This document shows, piece after piece, positions 50,201 through 59,200 of a stretch of DNA of 64,000 bases. Source of the DNA: Flaccisagitta enflata (Eukaryota); contig OZ231126.1 in the NCBI GenBank assembly GCA_965153355.1, positions 17,360,001 through 17,424,000 on the forward strand, written 5' to 3'. Position 1 is the stretch's first letter. Every line of letters starts with the position of its first letter. Both the position numbers and the translations under genes were made by a program. The notes beneath the pieces are model-generated. The model was not told the origin of the DNA. It did not search any database and worked only from the letters and a program-made list of their open reading frames with translations.

Positions 50201-53200
50201 TACGCAGAGGGTCAAACTTACAAATTAGAAATAGATAAACTGTGTGAGGGTTTTCCTGTCCAACTGTTTTGTGTCCACGTCCGTATGTTCATCCCGTTTT
50301 CATTAAAATACCATATTGCGCCATTTGTCAGTTTACATACTGTATAACTCGGTCCATATTGCATGGTGCATACCGTCATATCCTTTCCTTTTCTCACCCA
50401 ACGATCTTAACAGTTTCACTACGTTCAGCGTGGATGAGACTTACGTCCAAAACCGTCTTCAGCTGTCTTTTACGCTCCTTTTGACAACCGTCTCCTTCAA
50501 ATTCGTCATCAACAGAACCGTCCCTCGACTCTCCTATCTCACATCTCTTGATAAGTACGTAGATGGGGAAAGAAGAGTGTAGGAAGCATAAATGCTTTCC
50601 AGGCAAGAAAAGAAGAAAGAAAGAAAGCAAACAAGCAAGCAAGCAAGCAAGCAAGCAAGCAAGCAAGCAAGCAAGAAAGAAGGAAAGAAAGAAAGAAAGA
50701 AAGAAAGAAAGAAAGAAAGAAAGAAAGAAACAATGATTTGACAAAAACATGAAAAAATAAAATGTGACCAACCAACCAACCAACCAATCGAGTGACCGAC
50801 AAACCGACGGGCTGGATAGTCGCGTAACACGCGCCTAAAAAGGTTACAGACGGAGTTACCGACCGACAAAGCATCGAAAAAAAAGAATAATAAGGGAAAG
50901 ATTTTAGATTAAGTGAAGAACTATCAGCAAGCTTCCTTGCACCCAAACGGCCAAAAATGTAACAGGCGTACGTTCTTTTTATCGGTCTTGCTATTGTATT
51001 TCCTCTTGGTCATATAATCATCGGCAAAAAAGTCGAAGTCAGTCTTCAACTTTTTGACATATTCGAGAGAAATAGGGTTTTCATTTTCTTATTAGGAAGT
51101 TGGGGATCTCCACCAATCGAATGTGGCCTCCAATGAAATTGATAGGGTAAGTAAATTTGATAATTTTCTTTCACATGGCACCAAGCAGAATGCTCTACGG
51201 CAAATATTTTTTGCGTTATGAATTTTTGAAGATTTATTTACAAAAAATTCAAATTGAATTTTTTTCTATTTTTTATGATTTTCAGTAGGATCAATAAAGG
51301 AGTGTATTTAAGTTTGTTTGAGCATGCAAATACAAGAAAACGTATTTATGAGCATAACTGCTCATCTGTGAGGGTGTTTTTGAGCATTTTAGCTCATTTA
51401 GCTCATTTAGCTCAGTCTGTTTTTCTGATTTAAAATACAAAAAATGAGTAAATATTTATATACATGTTTGAGCATGCAAATACAAAAAGCATGTCAGTGA
51501 GCAAAGCTGCTCATCTATGAGGGTGTTTTTGAGTGTTCTAGCTCATTTAGCTCATTTAGCTCAGTCTTTTTTTTTTCTTTTTTTTTTTTAATGGGATAAA
51601 TGAATAAATGTTTTGATGTGAGCATGCAATTTAGCTCATCAAGCTCATTTGGCTCAGTCATATTTTTCTCTGATTTGCAGTGCCATCAATACATACAATT
51701 GGCCCTGATTTGATCTAACAAATAAAAAGATTTGCAATGGCTGAAAACAAAAACCTAGTGAAAAGTGACCGATGCTTACGACTTTTTTCCTCACGGCGAC
51801 AGCCGCCAGTACTGGTATGTAAGTCATGGCAAAAACCAGATAATCAATCTTTTGCACTCGGAGGAGAGACAACCTGTTTCTCTCGTTATTTTCTCTCCCA
51901 CTGCTTTTTGCGATTTTCAATTCTTTTCAAAGATCGGAAAACCAGTTTCAAATCATTTGATTTCAAAACTTATGTCATACATTCCAAGCATTTGCGCTTC
52001 AGAGAGTTGTAATGAACAAGCTTTCAGTGTTGATAGCAAACCTGATTTCTCGCTGTTCAGACATGGCTTTTGTCAAGTTGCTTTTCGTACTGGCAGCGGG
52101 GGTGTTGTCTTTGACGTTAATGCGCACTCAAGCTCTCACTATCACGGACCCCGGCGACGATTTCTATTTCAAGTTAGAAACTGGTCAAATGCTCATAGAA
52201 AACGAGTCCTTTGACCTCTACTGCCCAAAACTCTCACGTGTCAATGAGGATGATTACGTTTTTTTCCCCGGACTTTGGTACGAGACCGAAAAGGGCCCAA
52301 ATTCGACTCTTTTGTTCGTTCCGGACATTGATAATCCCGGTGATAAAGGTGTCGACTGCGGCGACGTCCGATTCAATTGCTCCCATTGGGGTTGCGCCAA
52401 CGAGGTGGTTCAAAAGGAAAACTGCGAGCGAATGATGTCACTCGTGAATTTTGAAACTCAGAAAAAATCAACAACGATTCCGTATGAATTTTTTGAAAAA
52501 TCCAAACAACCAATACATTCTTCAAAACCGATCGATTTTGTAAAGTTCACTATTCGCGCGATTATGGAATTTGCCCCGGGATACTTTCACTGCTCCAACG
52601 GATCTTTGCTGACTCCAAAAGAAATCGCAACGTCCACCTTCATTGACCCAAAAGACAGCATTTTCAAAATGCCAAAACACACGATCGGTTCATAGGATAC
52701 AGCCGCTTTCGACTACTTCACCTTCTCTGGAGTCGAGATTTCAGCGTGGTGATCAATAACTCCATAGAGTTCGACGTTTCTCGGCCTGAACCGATCGTAG
52801 GTCAGAACCATCAAATCAGGTGTCGTGCTAACATACGAGGCAAGGGCGATATGATTATCATTATCAGTAATCGAGTATCCGGAAGCTACGGGAGAGGATG
52901 TTTTGTGTTCGACGATCACTGGTGCACGAATGACAATCGCGCTAAATTGTATGACGATTTGCAAGGATGCCATCTCTATTACCGGATTTGGTACAAAAAC
53001 CATCCAACCAGAGAATCCAACCAGTACAGGAAGTACGATACCTACTCAGTTTTAAAAGCCGAATACCCTTCTTCCATAAATGTTCTCGAACATCCCTGCA
53101 AAACCAACAACAAGCCCTCTCGATGTCCTATTACACTTACGGATCCGGATGACGATTTCACTTTTGAGTTACCAGAGGGTCAACTTGTGATTGAAAACGA

Positions 53201-56200: not shown

Positions 56201-59200
56201 TGTTATTAACATAAAGCCCGAATCCCCCGCGGAAATTTCCCAAACTTTGCTCATCATCATCATCGTAATTGTCAGTCTGATTTTCGTCATTTTCGTCGTT
56301 CTTCTTGTCATCTGCATATTCATGTGCAGATTGCATAACAAGCGCGACGGAGCTTCCATCAGCAACAACAGATACATCATCAATGACAACAATCACAGCA
56401 ACAACAACGACAACAACAACAACAACAACAACAACAACAACAACAACAACAACAACAACAACAACAACAACAACAACAACAACAACAACAACAACAACAA
56501 CAACAACGACGACGCAAATGACTTTCCGGATGATTGGGACCGACAAAGTGCTCAAACGTACATCAGTTTCCAAAGCTCCCAAAGCTCCCACATCTACAGC
56601 GAAATCGATTGAAACACCCTCTATCATTCTAAAGTTACACTTTTAACTAATGGCTCTTGTCAGTCAACCAATTGTGTGAATGTTTATACTTTCATTCGTC
56701 ATAGCCCCATAAAATTTTCAAACGCGTCATTTGCATTGGTGGCTGTCTTTTGTACTTAATGGAACAATCAGTAGTGATGAACAAACCCGACCATATTCTT
56801 TGATTCACAGACGTACCTTGTAGTAGAAGTTGATAGAAGTTTGTGCCATTTCATATTGCATCGCGTTACGGCCAATTTTACATTGCTATCTAGTATTTTG
56901 TTTAGACTTGGCTTGTTTTGGGAACCTCTATAAATTCGAATGGTGAATTGATAATTACTCTTTGATGAACGGGTGCAAGCTTTCATTCACTCTTTTGAAT
57001 CAAAACAACCTTTAACAAAATTTGAGCAATGTTTTTTTCAGACCTTGCTATGATGGAAGAGGGTTAGGAGAATTCAAAAACTTTTGATCTAACTGCAGTT
57101 TAGAAACACAACTTATGACCATCACCATGCACCAATAATGAGAGAGAAAGAAAGAAAGAAAGAAAGAAAGAAAGAAAGAAAGAAAGAAAGAAAGAAAGAA
57201 AGAAAGAAAGAAAGAAAGAAAGAAAGAAAGAAAGGAAGAAAAAAAAGAAAAGATAAAAACAAAAAGAAACAAACAAACAAACAACGATACAAAGGCTGAA
57301 AGAAAGAAACGAAGAAGGAAAGAAAGAGACAAACAAAAAATAAGAACTAAGTGAGCAAGCCAGCAAGAAAAATCGAAAGAAAGAAAGTTAGCCAGAAAGC
57401 CAGCAAAAAAAAAGCCGAGATAAAAAGCAAGCATGCAACCCAGCAAACAAAGTAATAAAGAAAACATGCAAGCCACCAAAGAGACAAGCAAGTGGGCAAA
57501 ATGAGAGAAATGATTACCGTTAAAGAAAGTACAACATGAGTAATAAAATGAAGAAAAGAAAGAAACAAACAAACAAACAAACAAACAAACAAACAATCAA
57601 ACAAACAAACAAACAAACAAACAAACAAACAAACAAACAATCAAACAAACAAACAAACAAACAAACAAACAAACAAACAAACAAACAAACAAACAAACAG
57701 ACAAACGAAGAGGCCTCCGGATCATGCCAAAGTGCCAGGAACTGCGTTTTTACAGACCAACCAATAGACCGAAGGACCATCAGACATACCCTCTTTCATA
57801 GATTCGAGGACGTATCCAAAAACGCAAATTGAAGCCTCACATCTTTTTTGTCGGTCTTCAGGTACGTCTTGGCTTCCATTATGATGTTATGCCTGATGTG
57901 CGTCTGGCATGCAGCCTGCGGTATTTTCAGGTGAGGCGTCCAAAGGACCAACGGCTTTGTACGTCGTTGATACGTCACAATCATCGATTCATCATGTCAT
58001 GCAATGCCTCCTGTTTTCTATCTTTTCGTCACGCCATTACTATCTTGCTAATGAATATATCAACATCTGAAACGAAGCATCAACTTTGGAAGAGTACTGC
58101 TCCTAAACAAATAAAGCTACAATCACCAGATTGGTCTCATTTCAAATATTTGTTTAAACTCTTTAAAATGCGACCAAGCTGGTAAATGTAGCTTTATTCG
58201 TTTAAGAGCAGTACTCTTCCAAAGTTGATACTTCTTTTCAGGTGTTGATATACTTTTTAGCAAGATAGTAGGACTGATTAGACTGATGTTCATACGTTAC
58301 CACGAGTTCATATGATTTCAAAAAGGTCCAACGCCATTGATACGTCACAATCATCATGCCTTGTCTTTTTTCATAATCATTCAGGGATGAGAGCGACGAC
58401 AGCGACTTAGTGACTGACAAGAAAGTCTGCGCGACGATGCTGGGCGTCTACATCGTCTACCACACGGTAAGCTGTCCGCGGCGCCGATTCTGCCGCCACC
58501 ATGCACGAATGCATGGATGAATTATGACCGATAATCCAGCCTCCTTTACTAGTCGCGTGCTATGCGACTCAATAAGCCGCTATATCGGCAGATGTTTTTT
58601 TTTTCACTATTGCTTCTGCCCAAGGCCTTGCTTTATCAAAATATTCATCACTGCCATTGCCAATGCGCCCAGCCGCCCACCCACACGCGACTAGGATAAC
58701 CGCATTTATGGCCTCGTTTGTAAACGAGGCCGGTGGACACTCACTGGACAGGGGCAGTGACAAATAGTCGCACAAGCGTTAGGATTCTCGCGTTACGCAG
58801 AAGAAGAAGGAGAGGGAGAAAGAGAAATTTTCCCATGTGTGAAAGCATAGGTCATCGGTCCCTTCAGGTCGCTGCCCAAAAAGACTAACCAAGCAGTTTG
58901 GTAGGGGCAGTAATGCGAACAGTCCACACTGGCCCAGAATGACCACCTATCAAGGAGAATTACTTATCTCAACATTCACCACCCCTAACCACCCCTAATC
59001 ACCATCACACTGGCCCAGAATGACCACCTATCAAGGAGAATTACTTATCTCAACATTCACCACCCCTAACCACCCCTAATCACCATCACACTGGCCCAGA
59101 ATGACCACCTATCAAGGAGAATTACTTATCTCAACATTCACCACCCCTCACCACCCCTAATCACCATCACACTGGCCCAGAATGACCACCTATCAAGGAG

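Follow-up and report, generated by a model that had tools for sequence, protein, structure and literature searches.

Nested genes of Drosophila melanogaster lie on the strand opposite to that of the host in 71.27% of the cases, and 72.53% of the same-strand ones have a single exon; as a class they tend to fast evolution and narrow expression (PMC3814207). Cys-less "Pro-loop" pentameric channels have been described from protists and some invertebrates (PMC4795631). Neointrons of Daphnia carry at their far end a direct repeat of the exon end, 4-12 bp long, reported as the footprint of staggered-break repair (PMC4202315), and introns made by transposons, with target-site duplications, are on record as well (PMC9860276). 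The locus considered below is located in a 64,000-nucleotide (nt) stretch of the Flaccisagitta enflata genome (assembly GCA_965153355.1, contig OZ231126.1, positions 17,360,001 to 17,424,000 of the forward strand), hereafter the window, whose own numbering is used throughout. A gene of a Cys-less pentameric ligand-gated channel occupies 47264-60562 on the plus strand, and its intron 7 contains a long coding unit at 52063-56612. This unit is probably a single-exon cellular gene of very few lineages, lying on the same strand as the channel gene and recently broken.

The arrangement itself, a same-strand single-exon gene in a long intron, is a normal and known genome architecture. Like the same-strand nested genes of Drosophila (PMC3814207), the unit lies entirely in one host intron, on the host strand, and has no introns of its own; it differs from them in that its open reading frame (ORF) in the window is broken twice, so that a nested gene with its own intact ORF is not what is seen. 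A preliminary description of the window had remarked that nested genes more often lie antisense to their hosts, which is right for Drosophila.

The channel gene consists of ten exons. The exon model was built by mapping the transcript-like homologues P0010-12, in which exon 7 passes directly into exon 8, onto the window with tblastn and then scoring GT..AG pairs against P0010-12 for stop-free joins. Exons 1-7 (47264-47357, 47641-47750, 48180-48375, 48748-48866, 49388-49546, 49957-50126, 50414-50554) encode the extracellular domain and helices M1 and M2; exon 8 (57862-57930) encodes M3 and is followed by exons 9 and 10 (58385-58466, 60419-60559) and the stop codon at 60560-60562. All nine introns are GT-AG, and the spliced host ORF is intact (427 codons plus stop, 1,284 nt in ten exons).

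At the junction between exons 7 and 8, 50554|57862 is the sole in-frame, stop-free GT..AG pair. Exon 7 ends with CTT GAT AA|GTACGT, exon 8 starts with CAG|G TAC GTC, and the segment SYLTSLDKYVL is uninterrupted across the join in all six aligned homologues. The in-phase junction proposed in the preliminary description is thus backed by the mapping, by the uniqueness of the splice pair and by the continuity of the homologues. The intron so defined (50555-57861, plus strand, phase 2, donor AA|GTACGT, acceptor TCTTCAG|G) is 7,307 nt long, while the other eight measure 283, 429, 372, 521, 410, 287, 454 and 1,952 nt; the earlier figure of 0.3-2 kb for these, the treatment of 50555-57861 as a single intron and the numbering of the introns were all correct, as was the placement of the coding unit within intron 7 on the host strand.

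The nested coding sequence runs from the ATG at 52063 to the TGA at 56610-56612. The start codon and a signal-peptide-like hydrophobic N-terminus occupy 52063-52134; an alternative in-frame ATG is at 52012, and the acceptor-like sequence ctgttcag|acATG, already pointed out in the preliminary description, indeed stands directly before the start codon. Two Cys-rich units follow, the first of about 330 amino acids (aa) at 52135-53123 and the second of 334 aa at 53124-54125, with conserved cysteines and several N-x-S/T sites; in the ~190 N-terminal residues that BLAST aligns, the two are 59% identical. Next come ten tandem Thr/Ser-rich mucin-like repeats of 156 nt (52 aa) at 54165-55724 (92% matches, 38% Ser+Thr, no indel or stop), then a more degenerate Thr/Glu/Lys-rich sequence to about 55870 and a Glu-rich stretch at ~56118-56170, ahead of a single transmembrane helix placed by hydropathy at 56247-56327. 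The cytoplasmic tail (56328-56612) contains an (AAC)n poly-Asn tract at 56386-56507 (~40 Asn codons) and, after it, two Tyr-x-x-hydrophobic motifs. Read through both breaks, the product has about 1,515 residues.

Segments with mean hydropathy above 2.0 over 19 residues are found only at the N-terminus (52063 onward) and at 56247-56327, and the predicted topology is therefore type I, with a signal peptide and one transmembrane helix. The predicted product conforms to the pattern of membrane-tethered mucin-like proteins, that is, Ser/Thr-rich repeats between an ectodomain and a single transmembrane helix, with an N-terminal signal peptide. The stalk would be expected to be O-glycosylated, and the Tyr-x-x-hydrophobic motifs of the tail may serve in sorting or signalling. 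The antisense ORFs of 372-430 codons at 54083-56052 (minus strand), which overlap the mucin-like repeats, owe their existence solely to the absence of stops from the opposite strand of the 156-nt repeat and should not be called genes.

Type I receptors combining an immunoglobulin (Ig) domain with a mucin stalk, such as the TIM family, are presumably the most similar described proteins. The order of parts is shared with them: a signal peptide, one or more predicted beta-sandwich binding domains, a Ser/Thr-rich stalk that would be O-glycosylated, one transmembrane helix and a short tail with tyrosine motifs. The nested product differs in showing no sequence relationship to this family and no Pfam Ig match, in having as its binding unit a duplicated Cys-rich module of ~335 aa with a weak V-set-like fold match, and in the 40-residue poly-Asn tract of its tail. 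The type I membrane glycoprotein, composed of the signal peptide, two ~335-aa Cys-rich units, the ten-repeat stalk, the acidic stretch, the transmembrane helix and the poly-Asn tail, could be a cell-surface recognition or adhesion receptor, whose binding domains would be held off the membrane on the O-glycosylated stalk and whose tail tyrosines might drive internalisation or signalling. The nested unit would leave the channel pre-mRNA together with intron 7, and its expression, if any, would require a promoter of its own. It probably entered intron 7, or arose in it, as ordinary cellular DNA.

The ~335-aa Cys-rich, beta-rich unit is new to the databases. Pfam yields no families at E<=1 for the ectodomain (P0001, P0002), including no Ig or V-set profile match, and for the tail part it yields sub-threshold low-complexity and transmembrane matches. 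The AlphaFold2 models were built on shallow alignments and are of low confidence, with a mean predicted local distance difference test score (pLDDT) of 56.3 for the whole unit (60-90 at residues about 20-165) and of 61.7 for the N-terminal half-unit. Comparison with PDB by Foldseek retrieves antibody and T-cell-receptor chains only, at TM-scores of 0.21-0.29 per query length. Against 48,161 representative chains, VIA-align places V-type Ig domains first for the whole-unit low-pLDDT model (best Z 8.1, 106-107 residues, root-mean-square deviation 3.1-3.8), and for the half-unit low-pLDDT model the top rows are again all V domains, with a best Z of 5.3, Z under 8 being common for unrelated sandwiches. 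The ESM Atlas gives Ig-type leads only, with a best score of 0.86. As a lead, an Ig V-like sandwich that carries a Cys-rich insertion may be proposed for the N-terminal half of each Cys-rich unit.

The length of 52063-56612 is 4,550 nt and cannot be divided by three. According to the ORF listing, the frame-1 ORF from the ATG at 52063 stops at the TAG at 52693-52695. Frame 3 is open from 52647 to the TAG at 56043-56045, with coding sense from about 52674, and continues past this TAG for 188 more open codons (from 56046 to the TGA at 56610-56612) that include the clean transmembrane helix. The first break is the A-run at 52674-52677 on the plus strand, which is one base short compared with unit 2 and the homologues: when units 1 and 2 are aligned as DNA, unit 1 lacks one base at ATGCCA-AAACAC. 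Since the relatives P0005 and P0006 run on through this point, the break is a frameshift within conserved coding sequence rather than a small intron. The second break is the in-frame TAG that separates the ectodomain from the membrane anchor; frame 3 has no other internal stop.

Some ways around the two breaks were considered. An 84-nt in-frame GT(56040)...AG(56123) intron skipping the TAG is unlikely, given its donor GTCTAG and the G at acceptor position -3. Reading of TAG as a sense codon is not tenable with one TAG and zero TAA in about 1,500 codons, and a programmed -1 frameshift at CCA AAA C lacks an X XXY YYZ heptamer in frame. The preliminary description of an intronless gene of ~1500 codons holds in part: the unit has no coding introns, as far as its homologues can tell, but it is not one ORF; likewise, of the full signal peptide-to-tail membrane protein that it had reported, the two hydrophobic segments and the tail are present, but the reading frame connecting them is broken twice.

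Still, the nested sequence is genuinely coding. An exhaustive HMMER pass over 1,835,955,588 representative proteins returned four relatives at E<=1e-3, the best at E 5.3e-32 with 43% identity over 166 residues. All four are unnamed fragments on 554-1,224 nt contigs of ENA assemblies, in clusters of 1-3 members. In two of them a hydrophobic leader stands immediately ahead of the domain, and in one a Ser/Thr-rich part comes after it, so that the architecture of the nested protein is common to the relatives. Moreover, comparison of unit 1 with unit 2 yields a dN/dS ratio (nonsynonymous to synonymous substitution rates) of 0.24 for the 180 codons that precede the frameshift and of 0.21 for the 136 that follow it, the latter read in the shifted frame and with dS saturated; the two Cys-rich units have thus been under purifying selection. 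The ten mucin-like repeats, with a ratio of nonsynonymous to synonymous differences (pN/pS) of 0.70, evolve under relaxed constraint. The 188 open codons past the TAG, with their clean transmembrane helix, would not be expected to last long without selection. Taken together, the relatives, the low dN/dS, the shared architecture and these open codons indicate that the nested ORF was functional until recently, or is functional still if the defects are not real. As far as homologues can show, it has no coding introns.

Other searches for the nested protein were negative: none of 1,982 candidates from a word-indexed search at near lengths is related to it, the 79 pattern matches from a scan of JGI metagenomes include no relatives, and tblastn against 41 channel loci (262 kb) gave no matches.

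Because the remainder of the unit is clean coding sequence with a purifying-selection signature, a very recently inactivated copy or a null allele is, by a small preponderance of the sequence evidence, the state we favor for it. Several observations weigh against the proposed recently broken cellular gene. With two lesions in 4.5 kb, any product would be a secreted fragment of 210 aa, and for this reason the word "receptor" describes a recent past state. One-base homopolymer errors are common in assemblies. No orthologue-level nested protein is present in a collection of 15 billion proteins that contains 94-100% matches to host exon 7, which leaves expression of the nested gene in relatives without support. 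The assignment to a fold is weak as well, with pLDDT of 56 and 62, no Pfam match, and Z of at most 8.1 and 5.3, values described as common by the tool itself. Finally, the composition differs moderately from that of the host coding sequence: the GC content at third codon positions is 0.47 in the nested unit and 0.61 in the host, and relative synonymous codon usage correlates with r 0.38. On this composition a foreign source is conceivable, although the difference is insufficient to argue for one.

The strongest competing explanation is that the nested gene is intact and functional, the missing A and the TAG being assembly errors or one-haplotype (heterozygous) variants. The position of the frameshift in a homopolymer is in line with it, as are the coding quality, undiminished on either side of both lesions, and the 188 open codons with a perfect transmembrane helix past the TAG. 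At the same time, this explanation requires two independent defects within 4.5 kb, and a stop-creating substitution is not a typical assembly error. Moreover, the ten host exons of the same assembly (1,284 nt) bear no such defect, which argues against a generally error-prone sequence, and hence for real lesions. We consider an intact gene a serious contender, yet the less probable state of the unit.

A different question is the age of the intron that contains the nested unit. Forty-one channel loci (262 kb) were fetched in a second JGI metagenome scan with the channel alignment, and the exon 7/8 region was examined in 23 of them. None has an intron at the position equivalent to 50554|57862. 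In ten loci an intron separates residue 329 from residue 330, at a site that is 5 nt upstream of the phase-2 one of the window; it is of phase 0 (…ATG|GT … AG|GAC AAG TAC GTG, or equivalent), as checked at the nucleotide level in L023, L031, L007 and L020. The remaining 13, four of them transcript-like, have no intron in this region. The nearest genomic relatives are L023 and L031; their equivalent introns, of about 0.86 and 0.67 kb respectively, contain no relative of the nested gene. Moreover, the first six nucleotides of intron 7, GTACGT (50555-50560, plus strand), are identical to the first six of exon 8 (57862-57867), while in the other eight host introns the prefix shared with the downstream exon is 0-2 nt.

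These observations agree with intron 7 being a lineage-specific new intron, formed by the capture of several kilobases of DNA where a continuous exon had suffered a staggered double-strand break. The captured block could already have carried a complete cell-surface glycoprotein gene, with the GTACGT duplication supplying the 5' splice site, and if so, a single event would have yielded both the intron and the nested gene. The likeness to the Daphnia pulex neointrons lies in a position not shared with homologues and in a short direct repeat at the intron bounds, whose six nucleotides fall within the 4-12 bp reported for the staggered-break footprint (PMC4202315); those neointrons are short, recent and shown by population comparison, whereas intron 7 is 7.3 kb long, carries a gene and was compared with paralogue-level loci. 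Identity to these loci in exon 7 does not exceed 78%; moreover, their intron 6 follows residue 277 instead of 283, and around intron 4 they likewise depart from the window. In addition, the 6-nt match was noticed post hoc, and a donor-like sequence could coincide by chance with the constrained K-Y-V codons; the ends of intron 7 have no transposon features, and even in a new intron the gene could have arrived later. Thus, we regard a new intron as improbable, and a block that already carried the gene, with GTACGT as the source of the splice site, as no less improbable.

The preliminary description had proposed a retro- or virus-derived insertion whose acceptor and poly(A) site could compete with completion of the channel mRNA. 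This would account for the lack of coding introns, for an intron 7 far longer than its neighbours and for a composition moderately unlike that of the host coding sequence, and the acceptor-like ttcag 2 nt before the ATG would, if exon 7 were spliced to it, add a 52-codon out-of-frame tail ending at 52214 and truncate the channel. The 3' and flanking marks of a processed retrogene are nevertheless absent from the nested unit. There is no A-tract after 56612, and AATAAA does not occur before 57454, some 840 nt beyond the stop (a TATAAA at 56929 is also downstream of the nested stop). No direct repeat or target-site duplication brackets the gene ends within intron 7, and no long terminal or terminal inverted repeats are found in it. 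The possibility that the AAGA-type microsatellites on either side of the gene (50605-50730 and 57141-57327) represent a flanking repeat or the relic of a poly(A) tract was rejected, as similar GAAA-type tracts (SFFL-type frames) recur elsewhere in the window.

Nor is there any sign of a viral neighbourhood. Beyond the nested unit, intron 7 consists of microsatellites and a dispersed repeat of ~800 nt upstream of the gene (51020-51820, plus strand), which is 76.6% identical over 860 aligned columns to 16026-16851 of the window, in the same orientation, and holds three copies of an 83-nt sub-repeat (51349-51673) built on TTTAGCTCA motifs; it could be a transposon or an element that bears a promoter. 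The other ORFs of at least 100 aa in intron 7 are antisense frames of the tandem repeat or microsatellite and low-complexity frames, with no polymerase, integrase, capsid or other viral gene among them. The viral homologs that the preliminary description had suggested looking for did not appear either: IMG/VR, scanned with a back-translated pattern, has 29 pattern matches, none of them a relative, and a BFVD structure search with the low-confidence models gave no matches at E<=0.001, its top rows being generic Ig-like glycoproteins with TM-scores of 0.2-0.26. Thus, on the sequence features considered, a retro or viral origin of the nested unit appears to have no support, and we consider it very unlikely.

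That the block is an alternative 3'-terminal exon of the channel gene giving a channel-mucin fusion is hardly credible, for although it lies on the same strand and the acceptor-like site at 52062 precedes it, splicing to 52063 from exon 7, whose end is of phase 2, would read another frame with a stop at 52214, the block has its own ATG and signal peptide, and none of the 15 channel homologues (four sequences read, six aligned) is described with such a tail.

The identity of the host gene follows from its homologues and from its membrane and loop regions. A word-indexed search among longer proteins with the 52-aa M2 exon as query returned 15 proteins at E<=0.01 among 27 candidates, three of which are 94-100% identical over this exon, 427-428 aa long and encoded on 1.5-2.5 kb contigs. 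Since residues 5-428 of a channel homologue match a single unbroken 1,272-nt stretch at locus L001, the contigs bearing these nearly identical homologues are probably spliced-transcript-like. PF02931 is present in the full-length homologues, while single host exons match Neur_chan_LBD (E 0.017) and Neur_chan_memb (E 0.0019) below the Pfam cut-offs. The best solved-structure match of exon 7 (50414-50554; M2 and the M2-M3 linker) is the bacterial ELIC (E 2e-4), with weaker matches to animal GABA/Gly/GluCl receptor structures (E about 0.07-0.17); PDB sequence searches with the 23-aa M3 exon and with a piece of exon 5 gave no match. A hydropathy scan for M4 was unproductive, and M4 was placed via homologues.

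The Pro-loop region of the host (…LELMDFPFDVQDLSV…) holds no cysteines, and the channel therefore belongs with the Cys-less pentameric ligand-gated ion channels of protists and some invertebrates. With the Pro-loop channels (PMC4795631) it shares an FPFD loop without flanking cysteines, an M2 nearest to that of ELIC and a short M3-M4 loop; it differs in its ~70-residue N-terminal extension.

Two observations on the channel gene and its relatives concern duplicated exons. A 75-nt copy of the first 25 codons of exon 5, with 24 of 25 residues identical, is present at 49261-49335, 52 nt upstream of the true exon 5 (49388); with CG instead of AG in front of it and GTACCA behind, it resembles the relic of a partial tandem duplication and not a usable alternative exon. 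Among the genomic relatives, L031 (3150-3320 and 4277-4444) and L032 (9069-9233 and 10169-10318) have tandem pairs of M2 exons that differ at few residues (…SVAFKF… vs …SVTFKF…), which suggests mutually exclusive alternative exons for the pore-lining helix.

Elsewhere in the window, a 297-codon open frame on the plus strand at 42532-43425, ~4 kb upstream of the channel gene, contains several hydrophobic segments and has a sub-threshold Pfam match to Colicin_V (E 0.0048); possibly, this is a further single-exon gene for a membrane protein. The window is exceptionally rich in di-, tri- and tetranucleotide microsatellites, for example at 35425-36210, 46055-46835 and 16894-17587, and at 35.4-36.2 kb trinucleotide repeats leave all six frames open, long ORFs in such tracts being artefacts. 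Rfam and tRNA scans of 47-61 kb found nothing.

The Cys-rich module of ~335 aa represents an almost unsampled family of extracellular domains, with four relatives in 1.84 billion proteins, and it could be annotated and its fold solved. The channel gene and the gene nested in it form a clean case for asking whether the splicing of a host is disturbed by a gene nested on the same strand. Moreover, if the offset position of intron 7 and the 6-nt repeat at its boundaries reflect the origin of the intron, this would be an example of an insertion of the size of a gene that has turned into an intron.

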